A stretch of DNA of 64,000 nucleotides, from IMG/VR virus record IMGVR_UViG_3300045988_167063; one strand, 5' to 3'. The position numbers and the translations under genes are program-made. This DNA comes from a virus. The notes beneath the pieces were generated by a model that searched no databases, was not told the DNA's origin, and was given only the letters and a program-made list of their open reading frames with translations. Below are positions 1,119 to 56,936 of the stretch, in pieces. Position 1 is the stretch's first letter, and each line of letters starts with the position of its first letter.

Positions 1119-3328
1119 AAGTAAAGGCAAAAGTAATTAGAGAAATTTATCATAATGATAATTTTTATATTCTTGCTTTATCGCCTATGAAAATATATGA
1201 CAATCTTGAAATTACTCAATATGGCACATTTACTTGCAAAGGTGAATTATCAATGTTGACAGTTGGGCAGGAATATGACCTTGTTATTGAACCTATAAGC
1301 AATGATAAATATGGCACTTGCTATAAAGTGGTTGATGTGCCGAGTTTAAAAGTCGAGGATTTAAGTGACGATGACGAACTTGAAATATTAAGAACAATAA
1401 CCACAAACTCTCAAGCCGACTATGTTCATAAAGCATATCCAAATTTTATAAGGCTTATTTTAAATGGCGAAGAAGATAAAATAGATATTAAAAACATCTA
1501 TAATGTAGGTGAAACAAGGCTTAAAGTTTACAAAAGACTTATAAATGAAAAATTTAGATATTATTATCTTATGAAACAGACAAAAGAATATAAAATTTCA
1601 ATGTCGGACTGTAAACTTTTATTGAGCAAATACAAAACAATAGAGGAATGTGTAAAGAAAATCAATAATACTCCATATTTCATTCTTATGGAGGTGTTAG
1701 GGCGAACATTCGAGAATATTGACAAGATGATACTTGATATTCAACCTGACCTAAAAGTGTCTAAACAACGCTGTGAGGCTCTTATAATAGGTGTTCTGCG
1801 TAGGAATGAAGTTGACGGTTCAACAAGGCTTTATGCAAACGATTTATTCTATTATATTAAAGAGGAATATGACGCTAAAGAATTGTTGCCTATGCTCAAA
1901 GATGTTGCAGTTGAAAGTGATTTAATTTATTATGATGAAAAAACTAAAGATTTATCAATAATGTCAACTTATTTTGCTGAATGTAAAATAGCAGACTTTG
2001 TAAAAAGTAAAATACAAAATAGTAAAAAACTTGATATTGATTATACTAAATATAAAAACATTGATAATTTTATTATGAGTGATATGCAGTTAAATGCTTT
2101 AAAGGTTTTTTGCGAAAGTAATATTAGTATTTTGGCAGGCTTTAGCGGCGGAGGGAAGACAACAGCTATAAAAGGACTTGTTTCTCTTATGGAAGATAAT
2201 CATTTGACCTATACTTTACTCTCTCCAACAGGTAAAGCCTCTAAAGTATTATCTGAAAGTACAGGCAGAAAAGCCTACACTATTCATAAGCGTTGTTTTT
2301 CAGGCTCTATTGATACAGATGTAGTAATTGTTGATGAATGTGGTATGGTGTCACTTGATGTATTTTGTATGTTATTATCAGCAATTCAAAATGATAATGC
2401 AAGAATAGTATTAGTAGGCGACCCTGCACAGTTATCCTCAATCGGCTTGTCTAAAATTTATGATGATTTGATTAAATCAAATAAAGTACCTATGACAATG
2501 CTTACTGAAGTATTTAGATATAAAAGTAACGGCTCTCTTTTTGTTGCAACAAATATTCGTCAAGGCAAAAATTTCTTTGATGATGATTTTGTAAAACATA
2601 ATGAAAATACAAACGAATATACTGTGAGCGATAATTATAAGTTCATTCAAACAGATGAAGTGCTTGAAACTGTTGTTAATGAATATAAAAAGCTTTTACA
2701 AAAAGGCATAAAAAAAGAAAACATTATGGTATTAAGTCCATTCAATGTTGGTTTGTTTGGCACTTATGCAATAAATAACGAAATCCAACAAATGATTAAC
2801 CCTATTTTACCAAATGATAAAATACAGTCAAGAACAGTTAATAAAACAAAGATTGTATTTAAAGAGGGCGATTTAGTAATAAACACCAAAAATGATTATG
2901 AAGCAGTTAAAGCCGATAGCTATTATGAAAATAAAGATGTCGAGGGCATTTCAGAGTCAGATTATGAAACCACAGCAATAGTAAATGGGCAAATGGGTAT
3001 AATTCGAGAAGTAGTTGACAAAGGCTTGATAATTCAATTTGATGAGGAAATGGTTTATATGAACCGAAATAAACTTAATCATCTACTTTTGGGTTATGCA
3101 ATAAGTTGTCACAAGTCACAAGGTTCAACTATTGATTATAGTATTAACATTATTACAAACGCACATAAAAATATGTTGTCAAGAGGTTTATTATATGTTG
3201 CAACTACAAGGTGTAGAAAATCACACATAGATATAGGTGACGAAAGTGCTTTTCAATATGCGTTATCTGTATGTGACAATGATTTAAGAAAAACTTGGCT
3301 TTTAGATTTAATGACTGAAGAAAAATAA
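1109..3328 (+). CDS. RecD-like SF1 DNA helicase
   Basis: Walker A GFSGGGKTT, Walker B VVIVDECGMV, VLVGDPAQLSS, and C-terminal YAISCHKSQGS motif typical of RecD/RecD2 helicases. Confidence 0.85.
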   Translation: MQLKVKAKVIREIYHNDNFYILALSPMKIYDNLEITQYGTFTCKGELSMLTVGQEYDLVIEPISNDKYGTCYKVVDVPSLKVEDLSDDDELEILRTITTNSQADYVHKAYPNFIRLILNGEEDKIDIKNIYNVGETRLKVYKRLINEKFRYYYLMKQTKEYKISMSDCKLLLSKYKTIEECVKKINNTPYFILMEVLGRTFENIDKMILDIQPDLKVSKQRCEALIIGVLRRNEVDGSTRLYANDLFYYIKEEYDAKELLPMLKDVAVESDLIYYDEKTKDLSIMSTYFAECKIADFVKSKIQNSKKLDIDYTKYKNIDNFIMSDMQLNALKVFCESNISILAGFSGGGKTTAIKGLVSLMEDNHLTYTLLSPTGKASKVLSESTGRKAYTIHKRCFSGSIDTDVVIVDECGMVSLDVFCMLLSAIQNDNARIVLVGDPAQLSSIGLSKIYDDLIKSNKVPMTMLTEVFRYKSNGSLFVATNIRQGKNFFDDDFVKHNENTNEYTVSDNYKFIQTDEVLETVVNEYKKLLQKGIKKENIMVLSPFNVGLFGTYAINNEIQQMINPILPNDKIQSRTVNKTKIVFKEGDLVINTKNDYEAVKADSYYENKDVEGISESDYETTAIVNGQMGIIREVVDKGLIIQFDEEMVYMNRNKLNHLLLGYAISCHKSQGSTIDYSINIITNAHKNMLSRGLLYVATTRCRKSHIDIGDESAFQYALSVCDNDLRKTWLLDLMTEEK

Positions 3329-3378: not shown

Positions 3379-4071
3379 GTGAGAAATAGAAAGGATGATT
3401 TTATTAAACAGAAAAGAATTATGCAAATACTTATTGGCATTTTAGCCATAATGTGTTTGGTATTTTATGGTGAAAAATTTGCATTGGCACAGCAAACAGA
3501 AACAACGATAAATGATAATAATGTTATTATCACAAATCAGCAAACAGAAATTGATAATCTAAAAAAAGAAAATCAAAAGCTAAAAGAACAGGTCAAGGCA
3601 CTAAAAAAAGAAAATTCAAAACTTAAAAACTCGCAACAAAAGAAAGACAAAACAAAATTGAAATCTTATAAAGTGCCGAAAAATATGTATTTTAAATCTT
3701 ATACTAACTACAAATGTTTAAGTCGTTCTTCAGCACAATGGAAATTACAAAAAAAGGCTTATACAGATAAAAATGGTTTAAGAAAAATTGGTGACGATTA
3801 CCTTGTTGCAATGGGTAGCTATTATACAAAGCATTTAGGTGATAGATTTAAAATTACCTTATCGACAGGAAAATCGTTTACAGTTAGAATATGTGATTTT
3901 AAAGCTAATAGCGACACTAATTCAACACATCAATACACAGCAAATGGTTGTATGATTGAGTTTTATGTTGATAGCAACCTAAACTCTAAAGCAAGACGAA
4001 TGGGCGATATATCCTATATCAAAGGATTTAAAGGCAATATTACTAAAGTAGAAAAAATTATAAAGGAGTAA
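3379..4071 (+). CDS. membrane-anchored coiled-coil protein with C-terminal 3D/RlpA-like (double-psi barrel-like) domain
   Basis: N-terminal hydrophobic helix ILIGILAIMCLVFYG, lysine-rich coiled coil, C-terminal GDRFKITLSTGKSFTVRICD pattern. Start uncertain: GTG 3379 or ATG 3421. Confidence 0.5.
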   Translation: MRNRKDDFIKQKRIMQILIGILAIMCLVFYGEKFALAQQTETTINDNNVIITNQQTEIDNLKKENQKLKEQVKALKKENSKLKNSQQKKDKTKLKSYKVPKNMYFKSYTNYKCLSRSSAQWKLQKKAYTDKNGLRKIGDDYLVAMGSYYTKHLGDRFKITLSTGKSFTVRICDFKANSDTNSTHQYTANGCMIEFYVDSNLNSKARRMGDISYIKGFKGNITKVEKIIKE

Positions 4072-4077
4072 AAAAAT

Positions 4078-4386
4078 ATGAAAAAGATTTTTATATCTCA
4101 ACCAATGAAAGATAAAACAACAGAACAAATCGAAAAAGAAAGAGAACAAGCATTTTCTGAATTGCATAAATTATTTGGAGATGATTTTGAAATTATTGAT
4201 AGTGTTTTTGATTTTGAAAATGTAGAAAATGTAAACAAAGGTCTTTATTATCTTTCAAAATCTCTTGAATTACTTTCAACAGCAGATTGTGCAGTCTTTT
4301 TAAGTGGTTGGGATAAGGCTCGTGGCTGTTTAATTGAAAAAGAATGTTGTGACAAATACGGAATTGAAACCATTATATTAAATTAA
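4078..4386 (+). CDS. DUF4406 / nucleoside 2-deoxyribosyltransferase-like small protein
   Basis: KIFISQPM N-terminus and ADCAVFLSGWDKARGCLIEKECC C-terminal pattern typical of this phage family. RBS GGAG upstream. Confidence 0.5.
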   Translation: MKKIFISQPMKDKTTEQIEKEREQAFSELHKLFGDDFEIIDSVFDFENVENVNKGLYYLSKSLELLSTADCAVFLSGWDKARGCLIEKECCDKYGIETIILN

Positions 4387-4397
4387 GGAGTGATTTA

Positions 4398-4898
4398 ATG
4401 GCAAATTTATATGAAATTGACACAAAACTTGTCAATGCAATCGAATGTGGTTGTGATGTTGAAACAGGTGAGTTTATTGACGAAAAAGGCATAGAAGATT
4501 TATATATGGAACTCAATAATAAAATTGAGGGAATTGCTTTATATCGTAAGAACACCGAAAGTGACATTGAGGCTATTGATAAGGAAATTGAAGCCTTAAA
4601 GAAACGCAAAGAAATCAAACAAAACAAACTTAAAGGCTTGACAAATTATTTGAGCAGTTATCTTTTAAGTAAGGATATTAAGAAGTTTGAAACACCTAAA
4701 GTGCTTATTAAATTCCGTAAATCAACACAAGTTGAAATTCTTGATGAAAGTAAATTGCCTCAAGAATTTGTACGAAAGATTGAAAAGGTCGAATATAAGC
4801 CTGATAAGAAAGAAATTAAGAACTACTTAAAGACAAATCCTGATAAGATTATTGAGGGTTGTAGACTTGTTGAAAATCAAAATATTTCAATTATATAA
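4398..4898 (+). CDS. Siphovirus Gp157-like protein
   Basis: MANLYEI...IDEKGIEDLYMELNNKIEGIALYRKNTESDIEAIDKEIEALKKRK coiled-coil layout characteristic of the Gp157 family. AAGGAG RBS. Confidence 0.65.
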   Translation: MANLYEIDTKLVNAIECGCDVETGEFIDEKGIEDLYMELNNKIEGIALYRKNTESDIEAIDKEIEALKKRKEIKQNKLKGLTNYLSSYLLSKDIKKFETPKVLIKFRKSTQVEILDESKLPQEFVRKIEKVEYKPDKKEIKNYLKTNPDKIIEGCRLVENQNISII

Positions 4899-4907
4899 GG
4901 TGATTTA

Positions 4908-5114
4908 ATGAATAAATATATTGTCTTTTTTAATGACATTCAATTTAGTAACTTGTACTACTATAAAGGTGTAAAATATAGAATATCAAGTGAAGATAAA
5001 GATAACTATATTTTAAATCAATATATTGAGCCTTTTATAGTATCAAAAAAATTTGAAAATAAAGATTATTCGGTAGGTGATATTATAGTTGAAAGTAACA
5101 GATATGATTACTAA
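4908..5114 (+). CDS. hypothetical protein
   Basis: ORF with AAGGTG RBS, co-oriented and tightly packed. Confidence 0.5.
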   Translation: MNKYIVFFNDIQFSNLYYYKGVKYRISSEDKDNYILNQYIEPFIVSKKFENKDYSVGDIIVESNRYDY

Positions 5115-5736
5115 TGTAGATGTTTATGGATTTGAAAACGCTATTAAGTGTTCCAAATATCCTATGAGTGTTGATATTTCAACTCTTAATACAGATATAA
5201 CAAATACTGTCAAGAAACTTGGAAATGCTCAAAAAGGAAGCGGACACGATAATTTTTTAAAAGGTATTATTGTGCAATTTGATTTAACAATGACACCTAA
5301 AATGTCGATTGAACTTGAACGCTATCATTTTATTGATTTTATTTCAAGTCAATCAACAATGCACCGAATTACAAAATTTGATTTAGATAAAGCATATATT
5401 GAATATGTTGATAAAAGAATTATTGATATTATGAAAGATAAAGTTAATGAATATAATAAGTTAGTGGAACTCACTAAAGACAAATCTTTTTATGATAATA
5501 ACAAATGGGATATTGAAAATGAAAAAGAATATAAAGATGTTCTAAACAATTTATATCTTGAAATTCTTTACTCTAATCCTTGTGGCTTTAAACTTACAGC
5601 AGGAATGACAACAAATTATCAACAGTTAAAAACAATATATTATCAAAGAAAAAATCATAAACTCCCTGAATGGCGAACATTTTGTGAGTGGATAGAAACA
5701 TTACCATACTTTAAAGAAATTTGTTTGGAGGACTAA
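5089..5736 (+). CDS. ThyX-fold homolog with degenerate signature
   Basis: SGHDNFLKGIIVQFDL...LERYHFIDFISSQSTMH parallels ThyX HGHETPFEH..F.V....RHRxxSxxxxSxRY, but RHR is RYH and SGRY is STMH. Start is TTG 5089 or ATG 5104. Confidence 0.45.
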   Translation: MKVTDMITNVDVYGFENAIKCSKYPMSVDISTLNTDITNTVKKLGNAQKGSGHDNFLKGIIVQFDLTMTPKMSIELERYHFIDFISSQSTMHRITKFDLDKAYIEYVDKRIIDIMKDKVNEYNKLVELTKDKSFYDNNKWDIENEKEYKDVLNNLYLEILYSNPCGFKLTAGMTTNYQQLKTIYYQRKNHKLPEWRTFCEWIETLPYFKEICLED

Positions 5737-24663: not shown

Positions 24664-24803
24664 ATATCAATTTCTTTTTTAGACGATTTAATTTTCTTAT
24701 ATTTTCATATAAGAACCGACTATATTTTCATTTTAATAATAAAATGTAGGCTCTTTTGCTTTCGCTACTCTACTCACTTCGTCTACTTTTGTAGCTTATT
24801 CTA

Positions 24804-47324: not shown

Positions 47325-48956
47325 CTATTGATACTCACGACTGACCGCTCCACCCTCAGCTAAATCACTATTATCCTTTTGTGGTGCGCCAATATCGTAA
47401 GTATTTGTATTAGCATTAAACAAGGCAAATAAAGTATTTTGCATATCACTATGTTTAGCCTCTTTTACCATTGTTTCAAATTCACTGCCCTCATAACCTA
47501 AAAGAGTTCCCCACTTTCTTAAAGGCACTTGTATTCCTTTATCAGATAATTTTAAATGAGTATCAATATCTTCTTTCCTCTTAAAAGGCAGTGTACTACC
47601 ACTAACACGAAATCTAAATTTATATCTTTTAGTTTTCTTGTTTACAAAGAAATTTAAAAAGTTTTCAAATTGTGGATAAACTGCATTTGCAATTTCTTGA
47701 TAATCAGCGTTTGCAGCCAACTGTGCCTCTTCTTGTGATAATCTTTCATCTGTATAAATAAGTGAACTATTTGAAGCACCTAAACCAGCACTTGTTTTAA
47801 GTTGATTTTTATACATATTACTATTATTATCAGCAAATTGATAAAGCCTTGTTTCTTCAAGAGGTAAAGCAATTTGCTTAATATTTTTGTTAATGCCATT
47901 TCTTGCCAATCTCATAAGTTGTCCGACAACTTTAGGGTCAATAGTAAAGGCATTTTTATTATTGCCAACATTATCTTTATCTCTTGTTTTCATTTCTCCA
48001 AGAATAATTGCATTTGCAGAAATAATATCCTTATCTCTTTGTAATTTAGAAATTATATCATCATCAAATACTGACTTTAATAAGGAAGTTAAAGGTGGAA
48101 CAGTATTAAAATTAGAGGTATCATATTTAAACAACCAACTTCCTGCATTTACCTTTGTTCTTATATAATTTTCAGCATTAAAAGTATTTTGCCTACCCAA
48201 ATTTGACATATTGTCTACAATAAAGTTTTGCATTTGTTTGCTATTATCTTTACTACTTTGTCCTAATTTAGAATAGGCTTGGGCAAGTGTTTCGTCATAA
48301 TTAAGAACATTTACATTTGAACCATTAAAATAATTCAAATTAAAATCCCATAAAAAGCCATTTGCCCCACTACTTATAAAACGACCTGTGAGTTTACAAT
48401 ACTTTTGTGGCATCATTTGTAATGAAAAAGACTCTTTATTATCGTTCAAATCAATCGGAGTATCGTCAAAAGTCTTTTCGCTATCTCTAAGCCAACAAAA
48501 ATAAGTATCTGTTTTGAGCATATTTTTGACAACATTTCTAAATTCTTGTTTCGCTTTAAAATAATTAAAGAATTTATCTACTCTTTTGCAATCCTCTTTA
48601 TACTCTTCACTTTCAAACTCATCATCGTCTACTATATTAATCGGAACTCTATCTATATCAAAAGCCAATAAATTTGTTTTATATTCTATTGCCCTTTTAT
48701 AAATAGCATCCCAAGTTTCCATAAATTCGGAATAATCTTGTAATGTTTCAGCAGAATTTTTATAAGTAGCAATAGCTTGCCTTAAACTATCTCTGTCAGG
48801 TATTTGTTCATTATTATTTAAGTCAACTAATGTTTTATATTCGTTTATAGTATCATAAAAATAATTATTCTTATCTAATGGTGCTGAACTATAAAGTGCG
48901 TTCATAAAATCAATTACATTCCACACTTCGTCACGAGTTATAACTTCATCAGGCAA
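47325..48956 (-). CDS. portal protein
   Basis: 543 aa, directly downstream of terL and upstream of the protease. TTG start after GAAAGGAGG. Confidence 0.6.
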   Translation of the reverse strand: MPDEVITRDEVWNVIDFMNALYSSAPLDKNNYFYDTINEYKTLVDLNNNEQIPDRDSLRQAIATYKNSAETLQDYSEFMETWDAIYKRAIEYKTNLLAFDIDRVPINIVDDDEFESEEYKEDCKRVDKFFNYFKAKQEFRNVVKNMLKTDTYFCWLRDSEKTFDDTPIDLNDNKESFSLQMMPQKYCKLTGRFISSGANGFLWDFNLNYFNGSNVNVLNYDETLAQAYSKLGQSSKDNSKQMQNFIVDNMSNLGRQNTFNAENYIRTKVNAGSWLFKYDTSNFNTVPPLTSLLKSVFDDDIISKLQRDKDIISANAIILGEMKTRDKDNVGNNKNAFTIDPKVVGQLMRLARNGINKNIKQIALPLEETRLYQFADNNSNMYKNQLKTSAGLGASNSSLIYTDERLSQEEAQLAANADYQEIANAVYPQFENFLNFFVNKKTKRYKFRFRVSGSTLPFKRKEDIDTHLKLSDKGIQVPLRKWGTLLGYEGSEFETMVKEAKHSDMQNTLFALFNANTNTYDIGAPQKDNSDLAEGGAVSREYQ

Positions 48957-48980
48957 TAACGACTATTCCTCCTTTCTTAT

Positions 48981-49556
48981 TTAACCATAATCGTAAATAT
49001 CACTGAAATCATCTAAATCAATTTCAGCATCTTGTTCATCTTTCACATACTTAATATAGACTTTATCACAAAAGTAATTAAACATTGCCAAAGTCATATA
49101 TCTATCCTTTGTAGCTGTACTTTTTTCTTTAACTCTAACACCTTTATCTTTAAATTCTGTTGTTAAAGTAATTGCCTCATTAATAGCATACCTTGTTTCA
49201 ACAAACGGTACAAGGTCATAAGCCTTCTTTTCAGAGGACTTCAATATCCATTTACTATCTTTTTCTTGAAATAGTAATTCCATTTCAGAGTCATCTTTAA
49301 GAAAACTAATTATATTATCTTTAAGATTTTTTCTCATCGCTAAGTGCATATCACTATTGATTTCACTTGTACCAGCAATAGGAATAATTACTTCTTCGGC
49401 ATTAGAGTCCATAGTCCTATTAATTTTATCATTTATGATTTTATCAGAGCTTATTTGTAAAATTTTATCTCTACATACAGTCCACGCAGGATATGTAATA
49501 TCTCTTTCATCATCATATGTTTCAGTTGTCAATAAATCAAAGAAAACATTTCCTAC
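48981..49556 (-). CDS. terL: terminase large subunit, exon 3 (nuclease domain C-terminal part)
   Basis: Begins VGNVFFDLL. The ORF-track TTG is the intron end. Joins DSKG of exon 2 to give DSKGVGNVFFDLL, like the D.xGxG nuclease motif. Confidence 0.75.
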   Translation of the reverse strand, partial: VGNVFFDLLTTETYDDERDITYPAWTVCRDKILQISSDKIINDKINRTMDSNAEEVIIPIAGTSEINSDMHLAMRKNLKDNIISFLKDDSEMELLFQEKDSKWILKSSEKKAYDLVPFVETRYAINEAITLTTEFKDKGVRVKEKSTATKDRYMTLAMFNYFCDKVYIKYVKDEQDAEIDLDDFSDIYDYG

Positions 49557-49911
49557 CAATTATGTTATCATATAAGTTTTTTATCTTATATTTCTTATAG
49601 TTGTATTTCCTATAAGTTCGGCGTACCTTTTCATCTAATAAATTTATTTATATAAAAATGACAAGTTTATTTTATTTTTTTGCGTTCCAAAATACATATA
49701 CTTCTTCACTTATTATCATTTATTACTACTAATTATTTATTAGATGCCGAGAACTCTTGGCAAAATTATATTCTATAAAAATAGTTTCATTTGCTACGCT
49801 CTGCGTGTGACTATTCTTTTAAAAATAGCCTTCCACTCGGATTGACATTTCAGTTTTTCCGTTTCTTTCTCGGTTCGATTATATATCACTATATAAAAGG
49901 GCGAAGTTTTC
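49557..49911 (-). mobile_element. group I intron (ORF-less) in terL
   Basis: Follows ggT (G of DSKG). 3' end is ...GAACTTATAGG...CTTATATGATAACATAATTG, homologous to two other introns. Contains GCCAAGAG. Confidence 0.65.
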
Positions 49912-50892
49912 ACCTTTTGAGTCCATAACAAAATATGTGCATTTATAATCATAAAATAATCTTTTTATCATTACAATTTGTTTTTGAGAATTTAAACCAT
50001 TTTCGGCTTTTATATACTCTACTTTTCTTTGATTTGTTTCTATATCTATATTTCCTAATACAAAAACTGTATTATCGTTTTCTCTACCACCACTAACGGC
50101 AATATCCATTGCCAATACTCTTATTTCATTTTCGTGACTAAAATCATATTTATTTTTAATATTATAATAATAGTCATCATTTGTAGTTGGTAAAAAAGCA
50201 GTTTCAAGCACTTGATTTTTATGAAAATCATCATACAAAAACAAACTACCTTCTGTTTCACCAAGCCACAAATTCAAAAACTCCATTTCAAAATCCAAAT
50301 CATTTGTATTTTCTCGTCTTGTTAAATACTGATTTTTTGTTTGAATTTTATTAGCAACTGCTGTAAATATATCACCTGCAAAAAAGCCATATTTAATTCT
50401 TTTATCTGTGTAATGCTTTCTAACTACTGTTTTTAAATAAGTCCAAACCCAATTATCTTTCGTTCTTGCCGAAGTCATAAATATTTGCTTTGGCTCAATC
50501 ATTAACCCATTAAAACTATATGGCTCAAGCATAGGTTCAACAATAGACTCATAGTCTCTTTTCTTAACAATTCTTGCCTCATCTGTTATAGTTATATTAG
50601 CTCTTGCACCACGACCTGTTTCATTACACGCAACAGCGAATATTTTACTACCATTGCCATATTCGACAACTCTACCACCTGTTGTTTTATCTTTTGTAAA
50701 GTTAATATAGCCATCTGCTCGTAGTTGTTTTAAAATAGGACTTATGCCTTTTTTGTCACTACTTAACAACTTATCAATTTTATCATCAATAATTTTATTA
50801 CTTTGACCTAAAGTAAGCGAAGTAATAGCAATTTGAACTCCGGGTAAAAGCAAAGCAAGGTCATTGGCGAGAACACCTATGGTAAAGGATTT
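49912..50892 (-). CDS. terL: terminase large subunit, exon 2
   Basis: KSFTIGVLAND..., Walker B ITITDEARIV. Ends ...YFVMDSKG. Confidence 0.75.
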
Positions 50893-51178
50893 CAATTTTG
50901 TTATCGTATAGGCTCTTTATCCTATACTTCTTATACTGTACTAATTTTCGTATAAGTTCAGAGTACATTTTCATACATAAATACAGAGTATGTGGACACT
51001 CTTGGTGATATTATATTCTTCCATTTCAAAAGTTTCAATCACTACTCGTTACAATACTATTAATTTTTACATTAAATAGTTATCTCGGTGTTGTACTTAA
51101 AATTAGTGTAGTTTCACCGATTTTGCCCAATTTGCTTTATAACTATCTATAATTCATTATAAAGGAGCATTATTATTT
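50893..51178 (-). mobile_element. group I intron (ORF-less) in terL Walker A motif
   Basis: Splits ASRGLS|KSFT. Follows agT and ends ...CCTATACGATAACAAAATTG. Confidence 0.65.
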
Positions 51179-51418
51179 ACTCAATCCTCTACTTGCAATA
51201 AACGCATAAATATCATATTCCCAACAGTCAAGTAATACTTGTCTTTGAAAATAATGTAGTGGTATTTTTAAATGTTCTTCAGTAAAAATATCAAGATTAT
51301 TAAGATAAAATAATTGCCAATTAGCAATTCTCCTATCATAATCTTTTTTACTCAATTTTTTATTTTCTTTTATTTTCTTTTCTTTTGCCAAGCTAATAAG
51401 TTGTTTTTCGTCAATCAA
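51179..51418 (-). CDS. terL: terminase large subunit, exon 1
   Basis: Ends ...YAFIASRGLS (start of Walker A, compare T4 gp17 SRQLGKT). A stop follows two codons later. Confidence 0.7.
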
Positions 51419-52355
51419 GATTATATTTGTCTATGTCATCAATAGATAAATTAAAATCTCTATTGCCTGCCAACATATTTCCTAACGGTCTTAAAACCAT
51501 ATCTTTTTCATATTGATGTACTTTATTGAGGTCATAATATCTGCTTGGCTCTGAATATACATCCTCGACATTATTTTCGTCTACAAGTCTTATCTTTTCA
51601 AACAAAGACTGTTCCGAAGCCGTTTTAGGCTTATTGCTTTCATATTCATCAATACGAAGTTTATTCATATCTCTTATAATTCGATTTTGAACTTTATCTC
51701 TTGTTTCTTCACCACTATATGAACCGTCATCAATTTTTCTCAATAGCAATCTATCTCTACATAAATCACGATAAAGGTCATCTTGCGGTTCATTTATGAT
51801 TTCTACATTTTTTGTATATCTCTCATAGGTTCTTTCAAGATATTGATAATCTTCTGAACTTTCTTGTTTTCCCCAATTAAGTTCAAATTCATCAAGTTCT
51901 TTTTGTCTTAATTCTCGTTGTTCTATTCTACTATCAATATCACTTAAATTAACATTTGTTGCTGATAATTCATTCCAAATATTCTTTTTAGTTTTTGACT
52001 TATGTAATTCAGAAATATACAATCCCAAATAATTGTTCATTCGTTTGCCTTCTTTGCGACCTTCTTTCATTCGGTTTTCGACACCTGCCCAAACCTCAAG
52101 AATAAAAGGAATGTCATTTCGCAAACAAGTATAATAAACGGCTGATTTCATACTACAACCATTTTTAATATAATAATCAATCATTTTTTGACAACAATCT
52201 TTACAATAAGGTGTATGCCCACTTGCAAAAGGTGACCAACTTTCGTAAAAATTAGTCGCACCTCTCATACCACTACACCCTAATTCTGTATTATTGCCGA
52301 GGCAAAGAAACATATCGGTTTCCTTTTTTATGTTTTTAGAAGCCAACGCTTTCAC
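51411..52355 (-). CDS. putative terminase small subunit
   Basis: Immediately upstream of and overlapping terL. Cys-rich N-terminal region. Assignment by position only. Start uncertain. Confidence 0.35.
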   Translation of the reverse strand: MKALASKNIKKETDMFLCLGNNTELGCSGMRGATNFYESWSPFASGHTPYCKDCCQKMIDYYIKNGCSMKSAVYYTCLRNDIPFILEVWAGVENRMKEGRKEGKRMNNYLGLYISELHKSKTKKNIWNELSATNVNLSDIDSRIEQRELRQKELDEFELNWGKQESSEDYQYLERTYERYTKNVEIINEPQDDLYRDLCRDRLLLRKIDDGSYSGEETRDKVQNRIIRDMNKLRIDEYESNKPKTASEQSLFEKIRLVDENNVEDVYSEPSRYYDLNKVHQYEKDMVLRPLGNMLAGNRDFNLSIDDIDKYNLD

Positions 52356-52424: not shown

Positions 52425-53621
52425 TTAATTTAATACTATTGTAAAATCTGCCACTTTACCTTTATTTTCCTCATAGCAAATAAGACTTGCAGAAGCGTCA
52501 GCAGACTTTCTTATTCTCATAGAATAATCATCTATACCTACAACAGAAGCCACGCCAATAGCACCTCTACGCACACCACAGTTGGCATATTCATTATAAT
52601 GCTTATGCCCTGCAATAATATAGTCAATATTTATGCCATAAATTTCTCTATAATCTTTAATTGCACGACTTAAATCTTTAACTTCTCCGTGAATACCGAG
52701 AAAATTAAAGCCAGCAATGGTATCATAAATAAATCCTGTTTTATTTTCTTTAAAAGTAAAGTTAGGATTATCTTTATTTTTAATTTTAATGATATTAGCA
52801 ATTATTTTATCTGTTGTTTCACAAAGATGTTCATTCTTTTTACCGTCAAGCAATCTTAATTCATCGTGGTTGCCTGCCGTTTGGTTATAAATAATTTTTG
52901 TATATTTTGATAATTCTAAAAGCCATTCGCCTATATAATTACCAAAGTTAATTGCACTATCAACTACACCATATCTTAAAGACCAAAGTTGAGAATTTCT
53001 TATAAAACCTTCCGTACTATCTCCAAGATTGTTAATGTGTAATTCTTTAATGTCAAACAACTTTATTTTTTCAATAGTTTCAGATAAAATTGTTTCCATT
53101 CTCTGTTCAAAAATTTCAGGACTATATTCATTGATAATTTCATTCATAAGTCCATAAACTTTAATATCTTTTCCATAATGGCAATCTGCAAAATTTAATT
53201 GCCAACCTAATTTGCTATGTTCGACAGGAATAGGTTTAATATTAACAGAGTTGCAATTTTCATTGATTGACTCAATTACTTTTTCTTCAAAAAGTTCATC
53301 TCTTGCATTTTCACGCAACCATCTGTTATATTCAAGTTTTTCTGTTTGTAGTTTCTTTCGTTCTTTTTCAAGTTCCCTTGTTTGTTCTTTTATGTCATTC
53401 AAAAGTTCTTCACTATCAGCAAATTTAGATTGGTTAGCAACCATTATTTTTTGAAAAGATTGATATTTTTTTCTATAAGCACTTTCAGAATAGTTATTAT
53501 CTAATAATTCATTAAGAATTTTTGCTACATCTTGCCAAGTGCCAATAATATCCTTTTCAGAACAGACACGATAAATCAATTCATCTTCTGTTTCGTTTTC
53601 AAATCTCTTATAGGTCATCAT
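52425..53621 (-). CDS. calcineurin-like metallophosphoesterase with N-terminal helical domain
   Basis: Motifs DCHYG, LGDSTEG, AGNHDE, GIHGE, AGHKH in canonical order. Confidence 0.7.
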   Translation of the reverse strand: MMTYKRFENETEDELIYRVCSEKDIIGTWQDVAKILNELLDNNYSESAYRKKYQSFQKIMVANQSKFADSEELLNDIKEQTRELEKERKKLQTEKLEYNRWLRENARDELFEEKVIESINENCNSVNIKPIPVEHSKLGWQLNFADCHYGKDIKVYGLMNEIINEYSPEIFEQRMETILSETIEKIKLFDIKELHINNLGDSTEGFIRNSQLWSLRYGVVDSAINFGNYIGEWLLELSKYTKIIYNQTAGNHDELRLLDGKKNEHLCETTDKIIANIIKIKNKDNPNFTFKENKTGFIYDTIAGFNFLGIHGEVKDLSRAIKDYREIYGINIDYIIAGHKHYNEYANCGVRRGAIGVASVVGIDDYSMRIRKSADASASLICYEENKGKVADFTIVLN

Positions 53622-56046: not shown

Positions 56047-56936
56047 CAATATGTTATCGTATAGGTTTTTTATCCCATACCTCTTATGGTTTCCCATAAG
56101 TTCAGACTATCTCTTTACCCTCGTCTTATCCGTTAGGGTATTCGGCACTCTTGCAAAGGATTATTGTTTGTCTACTCACCTTGTAGTCGTTAAACCTTAC
56201 TGCCTACTTTTACGACATTCAGCAGTCTTGGTAATTGATTGGCTTATGTGTGTTAATTTTTGCAATATATCCATAGCAAGGCTTATTACATTTTGCCCTT
56301 CTTGCTATAAATCCACTAATTGCATTTATGCTTCCTTTAAGGTTCTGTTTAGTTTTAATCCATTCCGAACAATTCTTTATGCAAGAAAACGATTTTACCA
56401 AATTATCATTTTTATATAAGTCGACAGACTTACTTTTACCATTTTTATCTCCGAGTTTACAAACACTATATTTACCAATATCGGAACTATATCGAACATT
56501 ATCTTTGTGTGTAATCCATTCAAGATTATCAACACGATTATTTGTTCTATTATAGTCTTTATGATTTATTTCTAAATATTTATTTGGATTTGGAATAAAT
56601 GCTTCTGCTACTAATCTGTGAACAGATACATATCTTTTATTTCCACACATTTGTAAACAAACTACTTTATATCCATCTGAATTTGTTTTTGGCTTTTTAA
56701 TCTTTTCATTCCTTACAATATATCCACATTTTGCTTGTGGATGAGGAACTTTTCTACAAAGAGATTTTACTCTTCCAAAATTACTAATTTGATAATAGCC
56801 TAAAAATCCATCTATATCCTTCCATTGTTCTTTCAAAAAATCACCTCCTTGTTTATTTTTTTACACACACTTAGCGTTCCAATTTTCACCGAATAGTTTT
56901 AGAAAAGTGTTTCCACTTAACCGACCCATTTTATTA
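56047..56936 (-). mobile_element. group I intron with HNH endonuclease ORF, inserted at the DFDSD motif
   Basis: Follows ggcT. Core GGTTTAACGACTACAAGG and AGAGATAGTCTGAAC lies downstream of the ORF. 3' end is CCTATACGATAACATATTG. Confidence 0.65.
56219..56836 (-). CDS. HNH homing endonuclease with NUMOD4-like N-terminus
   Basis: WKDIDGFLGYYQISNFGRVKS (NUMOD4-like). HNH motif EINHKDYNRTNNRVDNLEWITHKDN. Confidence 0.8.
   Translation of the reverse strand: MKEQWKDIDGFLGYYQISNFGRVKSLCRKVPHPQAKCGYIVRNEKIKKPKTNSDGYKVVCLQMCGNKRYVSVHRLVAEAFIPNPNKYLEINHKDYNRTNNRVDNLEWITHKDNVRYSSDIGKYSVCKLGDKNGKSKSVDLYKNDNLVKSFSCIKNCSEWIKTKQNLKGSINAISGFIARRAKCNKPCYGYIAKINTHKPINYQDC

Follow-up and report, generated by a model that had tools for sequence, protein, structure and literature searches.

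Introduction

Group I introns have been described in the large terminase gene (terL) of several phages. In the Bastillevirinae, two or three group I introns, for the most part IA2/IA3-like, interrupt some terL genes, and in the genes tested splicing has been verified in vitro for SIOphi and in vivo for SIOphi and phiAGATE (PMC11878797). The terL intron of Streptococcus thermophilus phage 2972 is removed through splicing of the phage mRNA (PMC6356513), and a further paper cites introns in the terL gene of Twort (PMC6409932). Here we describe a terL gene found in a 64,000-nucleotide (nt) stretch of viral DNA, IMG/VR record IMGVR_UViG_3300045988_167063 (the whole of which is hereafter called the window), in which the coding sequence is divided into three exons by two inserts. 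Both inserts are very probably removed by standard group I splicing, which would yield a large terminase of 598 amino acids (aa).

The literature already contains terL genes from which two or three group I introns are spliced, and the present locus introduces no new biological principle. What is specific to it is the uncultured lineage, the exact insertion sites (the P-loop and the nuclease motif), and the fact that a standard Rfam screen misses the introns. The Bastillevirinae belong to another phage group, the Herelleviridae, and most of the introns there encode homing endonucleases and were located by means of Rfam and GISSD models, whereas the two introns of the window contain no open reading frame (ORF) and are missed by the Rfam group I model RF00028. 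The intron of the S. thermophilus phage 2972/858 type is, like those of the window, an ORF-less intron in terL and belongs to the same intron family. In phage 858, a Terminase_6N ORF and a Terminase_6C ORF flank an intron of approximately 290 nt, which ends with the same tail as the introns of the window, namely the paired regions (P) P9 and P9.1 followed by GAUAAC..UG. It appears to be the terL intron known from the related phage 2972. On the other hand, in the 2972/858 type one intron separates the two TerL domains of an unrelated terminase lineage, and its P7 is the classical GACUA/UAGUC, whereas P7 is GAGUA/UACUC in intron 1 and GCGUA/UACGC in intron 2 of the window.

Results

Organization of the split terL gene

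Three ORFs were called on the minus strand at positions 51418-51173, 50895-49879, and 49559-48981, and they were cut back to the exon limits proposed in a preliminary description of this DNA. Exon 1 (51179 to 51418, minus strand) consists of 240 nt, or 80 codons, and ends in AGAGGATTGAGT, which encodes SRGLS, the first half of the Walker A motif. Its putative TTG start overlaps the stop codon of the upstream gene. Exon 2 (49912 to 50892, minus strand; 981 nt, 327 codons) supplies the KS that completes Walker A, the ITITDE of Walker B, and LAMDIA with the first nuclease Asp, and ends in GACTCAAAAGGT, which encodes MDSKG. Exon 3 (48981 to 49556, minus strand; 576 nt, 191 codons plus a stop codon) begins with GTAGGAAAT, which encodes VGN, and holds the remaining nuclease domain, including the invariant K557-D558. 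The exons are separated by insert 1 (50893 to 51178, minus strand; 286 nt) and insert 2 (49557 to 49911, minus strand; 355 nt), both of which are ORF-less and resemble group I introns of subgroup IA. The trimmed exons were joined into a single frame of 598 codons plus a stop codon, with the joins FIASRGLS/KSFTIGVLA and FVMDSKG/VGNVFFDLL (the slash marks the junction). Recomputation from the sequence reproduced the exon sizes of 240 + 981 + 576 nt, the 598-aa frame, and all the coordinates of the preliminary description; as stated there, both 5' exons end in T (U in the RNA) and both inserts end in TTG.

The ORF list showed no ORF belonging to either insert, and the frames of at least 30 aa found there were a 37-aa frame and a 52-aa frame, each spanning an exon boundary. 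Without splicing, the frame of exon 1 ends 1 codon into insert 1 (GLSK followed by two stop codons), and that of exon 2 ends 10 codons into insert 2. A repeated AAA allows insert 1 to be placed in four registers, and a repeated G allows two for insert 2. Only the registers of the preliminary description give both a U at position −1 and a G at the intron end. Insert 1 is located between the Ser and Lys codons of Walker A, and insert 2 is located inside the second catalytic-Asp motif of the nuclease.

When the exon pieces were searched separately, only weak family matches were obtained. The joined protein matched PHROG 2, 'terminase large subunit', with an E value of 3e-20, together with several unnamed PHROGs, each of which matched in part. 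In a tblastn search, the joined protein matched 97 phage records, 79 of which covered at least 80% of the query at one place. Every match among the tblastn rows listed was in one piece, over residues ~28-589, and the matches included YonF of SPbeta, Enterocloster phage PMBT24, and Thomasclavelia phages. In an alignment of the joined protein with three intact homologues, neither junction was gapped. Junction 1 falls within SRGLS/KS of Walker A, where R77 and K81 are invariant, and junction 2 falls three residues past the invariant D404 and two ahead of the invariant G409 of the nuclease D..G.G motif. SRGLSKS (Walker A) and ITITDE (Walker B) align with the invariant R77, K81, and E185, and the acidic residues D343, D404, and D558 of the nuclease are invariant as well. 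A profile of this alignment matched the ATPase domain of T4 gp17 (E value, 0.002-0.01) and the phage TerL nucleases 5M1F, 5M1Q, and 5TGE (E value, 8e-4 to 1e-3) in the PDB, the latter matches spanning the intron-2 site. A single-sequence search gave a sub-threshold score for Pfam PF17289 (15.7 bits versus a cut-off of 22.6). These results identify the split gene as the terL of an uncultured SPbeta/PMBT24-like phage. The large terminase in three exons that had been proposed earlier agrees with the colinearity of the joined frame with intact TerL, the PHROG 2 match, and the neighboring portal gene, and the ungapped alignment places both breaks at the proposed motifs, Walker A and the nuclease D..G.G.

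Presence and absence of the inserts in related phages

A scan of IMG/VR with the joined protein gave seven loci (L004-L010). In L004-L006, whose TerL shares 93-99% aa identity with that of the window, the 286-nt insert 1 is present and insert 2 is absent. Their empty intron-2 site is an uninterrupted AAAAGGT GTGGGAAAT, which matches the predicted join almost base for base; L004 reads GACTCAAAAGGT GTGGGAAATGTT, which is the predicted exon 2/exon 3 join save for one synonymous base at the junction. In L007-L010, whose TerL shares 68% identity, insert 1 is absent and the sequence GGATTGTCA AAAAGT encodes a contiguous SRGLSKSF. These four loci bear a 254-256 nt homologue of insert 2 at the identical codon boundary. 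The empty sites for both inserts encode the same residues as the predicted joins.

Insert 2 of the window is longer than its homologues in L007-L010 only because of ~91 extra AT-rich nt within one hairpin loop, that of P8 (49734-49644, minus strand), which are absent from the 254-256 nt homologues. This 91-nt extra contained no ORF, and no clear repeat of it was found elsewhere in the window; it may be the remnant of a lost endonuclease gene or an expansion of the loop. The ratio of nonsynonymous to synonymous substitution rates (dN/dS) of the joined ORF was 0.04 against L004 and 0.17 against L005. Therefore, all three exons are under purifying selection as one protein.

Covariation in the shared intron family

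A 3' block of ~80 nt is 79% identical between inserts 1 and 2. A pattern derived from this block occurred three times in the window, compared with zero occurrences expected from 100 shuffles. The shared 3' core (P9, P9.1, and GAUAAC..UG) was found in at least 118 viral contigs of IMG/VR (L011-L128), many of them from metagenome 3300045988. Some of these members are without P5 or P7.2, and the location of the endonuclease ORF differs among members. The same core was present in 154 records of GenBank phages. Of these, 63 are S. thermophilus phages with the match at ~1.4-2.4 kb, and others include the tape-measure gene of Staphylococcus phage 6ec, Clostridium perfringens phages, and crAss-like phages.

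Helices were searched by covariation using 32 distinct core variants with their upstream sequence, and 11 to 80 related sequences were used per test. The 3' strand of P7, the 5 nt directly before GAAC, takes five forms (UAUGC, UACUC, UACGC, UAUUC, and UAGUC). An exact upstream complement in the context ..AAC/AGA-NNNNN-A/G was found in 76 of 80 distinct sequences, compared with 12 to 24 of 80 in non-overlapping shifted registers. In P3, the 6-8 nt following a conserved CCA(A/C)GAG pair with the segment just before the motif formed by the joining region (J) J3/4 and P4. The P3 sequences are wholly unlike among members (UCGGGCA/UGUCCGA, AUCGAGAA/UUCUCGAU, GUGAUCA/UGAUCGC, and UCAACCA/UGGUUGA); those in the window are UGGGCA/UGUCCA in intron 1 and CCGAGAA/UUCUCGG in intron 2. 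P3 had 6-8 base pairs (bp) in 20 of 25 distinct pairs, with a mean of 6.3 bp versus 4.4 bp when the partners were exchanged. The helix order, 5'P3, 5'P7, 3'P3, and 3'P7, is interleaved as in the group I pseudoknot.

P4, P5, P6, P7, P7.1, P9, and P9.1 were predicted unprompted by RNAalifold from 11 diverse members. In this structure, 94.6% of cells were in standard pairs, compared with 75% for column shuffles and 27-43% for slid partners, and both-side changes were seen in 23 of 39 pairs, a number reached by none of 500 shuffles. P7.1 showed both-side changes in all five of its pairs, with 100% of cells pairing. The first pair of P7 is G-C in all 11 sequences, J8/7 is GAAAAUG or GAAAAGG, and J4/5 is AA. 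A hairpin of variable sequence is found at the place expected for P8, between P3' and P7'. In addition, comparison of intron 1 among close relatives shows a compensatory change of G252-C273 to A-U in P9.1, and in P4 a G-C pair is replaced by G-U. Extra hairpins (P7.1/P7.2) placed after the 5' strand of P7 and before the 3' strand of P3 are the hallmark of subgroup IA, as reportedly described by Michel and Westhof in 1990. With a P7.1 hairpin between P7 and P3', introns 1 and 2 share a layout that is IA-like on the comparative evidence. The call of two ORF-less group I introns in the preliminary description is supported by their optional occurrence, exact bounds, covariation-backed group I core, canonical U, and terminal G.

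Predicted fold of each intron

Helix coordinates are given as window positions on the minus strand; P1, P2, P8, and the terminal G were read from the sequence. In intron 1, the internal guide sequence GCUC (51168-51165) forms a 4-bp P1 with exon GAGU, in which the splice-site U is opposite G. It is followed by P2 (51163-51146), P3 (51129-51124 with 50998-50993), P4 (51119-51115 with 51090-51086), P6 (51079-51057), P7 (51047-51043 with 50965-50961), P7.1 (51042-51038 with 51009-51005), P8 (50992-50972), P9 (50955-50931), P9.1 (50927-50906), and the terminal G at 50893. In intron 2, the internal guide sequence GCCCUUUU (49902-49895) pairs with exon AAAAGGU (AAAAGGU against GCC(C)UUUU), and the splice-site U is again opposite G. 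The remaining elements are P2 (49896-49879), P3 (49873-49867 with 49753-49747), P4 (49861-49859 with 49840-49838), P6 (49830-49809), P7 (49799-49795 with 49625-49621), P7.1 (49794-49790 with 49764-49760), P8 (49746-49735 with 49643-49632, enclosing 49734-49644), P9 (49615-49595), P9.1 (49591-49570), and the terminal G at 49557.

Both introns have a P2 hairpin after P1, with the four-base loop UGAA or GUGA. In L007-L010, an A-to-U change at exon position −7 is accompanied by a matching change of the guide in P1. The last nucleotide is G in both introns, and ..UG ends nearly all of the ~30 distinct family tails listed. An unconstrained fold of intron 2 recovered P2, P3, P4-P6, P7.1, P8, P9, and P9.1 (z = −3.9).

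Some candidate pairings were discarded. An 8-bp pairing in intron 1 (33-40 with 96-103) was set aside as a chance AT-rich match that clashes with the conserved P6. The early assignments of GUAC repeats as P7 and of a hairpin beside CAAGAGU as P4 were dropped because members of the I3 type (GAAA loop) lack the partner, and they were also displaced by the covariation of the GAGUA/UACUC type.

Rfam scans and features that count against the group I assignment

Several observations weigh against the reading of the inserts as active group I introns. The Rfam scan that had been suggested as a check gave no match to insert 1 or insert 2: RF00028 found neither of them at the gathering score in the window, at E ≤ 10 in positions 48900-51500, or at E ≤ 5 in the whole window. 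The scans of the window returned chance snoRNA-like matches only and no Intron_gpI. The folding of intron 1 has just a mild energy advantage over shuffles (z = −1.9). P1 of intron 1 has just four exon pairs, that of intron 2 requires a bulged C, and P5 is merely 2-3 bp. Furthermore, for some of the introns in phage terL genes splicing is seen in infected cells but fails in vitro, and a cofactor is reported to be needed in the case of phiAGATE (PMC11878797), so that unaided self-splicing is not assured here.

The gathering threshold of RF00028 is 50 bits. Family members that share the P9-P9.1 tail and bear the textbook R and S strings UCAACGACUA and GAAGAUAUAGUC scored 45.9, 33.9, and 32.1 bits, with E values from 2e-4 to 1.5e-8 (1.5e-8 at 45.9 bits). 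When an unrelated phage terL intron is aligned to RF00028, additional hairpins fall between P7 and P3', the same point as P7.1. Rfam is blind to introns 1 and 2 themselves; therefore, the group I call rests on comparative structure and on homology to the members that Rfam scores.

Relatives of the introns in other phages

The terL gene of Enterocloster phage CB457P2 (OP172754) also consists of three exons, which are annotated as hypothetical proteins only; the record looks mis-annotated at terL. Its TerL exons are 87-92% identical to the intact TerL of PMBT24 and ~30% identical to the TerL of the window. The first intron (2940-3217) is ORF-less and belongs to the intron-2 family, but it is inserted at SARG/ERA rather than in Walker A. 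The second intron (3971-5242) is of another type, scores 95.9 bits with RF00028, and carries an I-TevI-like ORF; it lies a few codons from the intron-2 site of the window. From the insertion sites in CB457P2 and the window, it follows that the terL catalytic motifs of this clade are recurrent landing sites.

The DNA polymerase intron of Wphvirus phages (Eyuki and Megatron) has a 3' core whose identity to the family consensus is 90.8% over 65 nt. Its layout is of the IA type, a hairpin separating P7 from P3' as in the introns of the window, but it differs in its host gene and in having an HNH nicking endonuclease ORF annotated I-BasI (seen in Bacillus phage Eyuki).

Other introns in the window

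A third intron of the same family (56047 to 56936, minus strand; 890 nt) lies between exons at 58746-56937 and 56046-55073 and carries an endonuclease ORF with NUMOD4 and HNH_3 (56836-56219). Its 5' exon ends in GGCT opposite the guide GGUC, and the intron ends in ATATTG. It divides a 927-aa gene of unknown function (phrog_8308) at DRTNG-S-DFDSDF. Intron-less alleles of this gene exist, because the junction is spanned by a single aligned piece in two metagenomic phage records. As context for the terL introns, the third intron shows the family to be active in this genome.

The tape-measure gene contains a fourth group I-like intron, different in type, at ~25030-23366 on the minus strand, between a 5' ORF (25719-24946) and a 3' ORF (23365-19970). 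Its core strings, at ~24900-24715, are the textbook CAGCCAAGUC, GGUUCACAGACUA, and GAAAAUAUAGUC; an internal promoter-like site, TTGACA-17-TATAAT, is followed by a 372-aa ORF (24663-23545). The Rfam scan of the window did not report this intron. A weak BLAST match at 24701-24731 was rejected as a further copy of the intron 1/2 family, since it lies in this tape-measure intron of different type.

Genes surrounding terL

The gene upstream of terL (51411 to 52355, minus strand) encodes a 314-aa protein of phrog_3314 and occupies the position of yonG in SPbeta, directly before the terminase gene. Immediately downstream of terL is the portal protein gene (47325 to 48956, minus strand; phrog_2739, 8e-35). 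The order of the YonG-like gene, terL, and the portal gene is the same as in relatives. Beyond the YonG-like gene, a 398-aa ORF (52425-53621, minus strand) was seen by eye to contain metallophosphoesterase-like motifs (GDSTEG and GNHD). A megablast search of 11 kb around terL against GenBank phages gave zero matches, from which it follows that this phage has no close cultured relative there.

Discussion

Splicing of the two terL introns would proceed as follows. Each intron would fold into a core with the P3-P7 pseudoknot, and in P1 the last U of the 5' exon would face a G belonging to the internal guide sequence. The invariant G-C pair of P7 would bind free guanosine, which would attack the 5' splice site; its place would then be taken by the intron's terminal G, and the exons would be ligated in phase 0. 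The product would be the mRNA for the 598-aa TerL. The sequences establish the exact insert boundaries, the occurrence of each insert in some relatives and its absence from others, a structure conserved through compensatory changes, and purifying selection on the joined ORF; catalysis, splicing in vivo, and its timing are inferred. Since translation of unspliced RNA would end 1 codon into intron 1 and 10 codons into intron 2, an active terminase would need both splicing events, and packaging would accordingly be predicted to depend on both.

Inactivity of the inserts was considered as an alternative, in which dead group I introns would interrupt a terL pseudogene of a decaying or defective phage. 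The missing Rfam match, the small P5 and P1, and the ~91 extra nt in the P8 loop of intron 2 would fit such decay. However, the three exons are in frame and have dN/dS values of 0.04-0.17 against relatives. The changes in intron 1, moreover, mostly preserve helices (the compensatory pair in P9.1 and the G-C to G-U change in P4, versus one A.C mismatch in P2), and the same two intron types are retained in seven other viral contigs. We therefore regard decay of this locus as unlikely. A still less probable explanation is that the inserts are mobile DNA resembling miniature inverted-repeat transposable elements, with the three pieces of terL made as separate terminase subunits from the in-frame TTG codons that end each insert. 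Both inserts do end in TTG in frame with the next exon, and it is because of these codons that ORF callers give exons 2 and 3 as TTG-started ORFs. Yet the P-loop is interrupted by the first break, which separates S from K in SRGLSKS, all intact homologues are single chains, and neither TTG is preceded by a Shine-Dalgarno-like sequence. As for mobile DNA, no terminal inverted repeats were read from the sequence, the sole possible target duplication is an ambiguous AAA at insert 1, and the RNA structure of the inserts, which includes strand-specific G-U pairs, is conserved.

Removal of the inserts by other means has no specific point listed in its favor, and we consider it the least credible of these explanations. 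The inserts, of 286 and 355 nt, fall far below the length of group II introns and lack a domain V/VI pattern. They are far longer than known translational bypass gaps, the in-frame stops exclude inteins, and, as regards DNA excision, no recombinase gene or direct repeats flank the inserts. Standard group I splicing thus remains the reading we favor.

With regard to mobility, recombination or homing helped by endonucleases encoded elsewhere is most likely the route; the latter is proposed because neither intron encodes an endonuclease of its own. A broader picture can be offered tentatively. Introns 1 and 2 might represent a large IA-type sub-lineage, invisible to Rfam, with a variant P7 and a minimal or absent P5, which is now moving between near-identical phages and landing repeatedly in the catalytic motifs of terL (Walker A, RG/xRA, and the nuclease D..G.G). 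Such introns might be mobilized in trans by endonucleases encoded elsewhere and may perhaps protect the intron-bearing terL when co-infecting phages compete.

The present locus bears on the annotation of phage genomes. Annotation would present this terL as three hypothetical ORFs, which is how the terL of Enterocloster phage CB457P2 already appears, and Rfam screens would miss both introns. Because the window holds at least four group I introns unreported by Rfam, intron counts in uncultured Firmicutes-type phages are probably underestimated. In addition, the intron-plus and intron-minus alleles in near-identical phages provide a ready system for studying the spread of ORF-less introns, and the same alleles could show whether insertion at the P-loop and the nuclease site reflects endonuclease targeting of conserved sequence.

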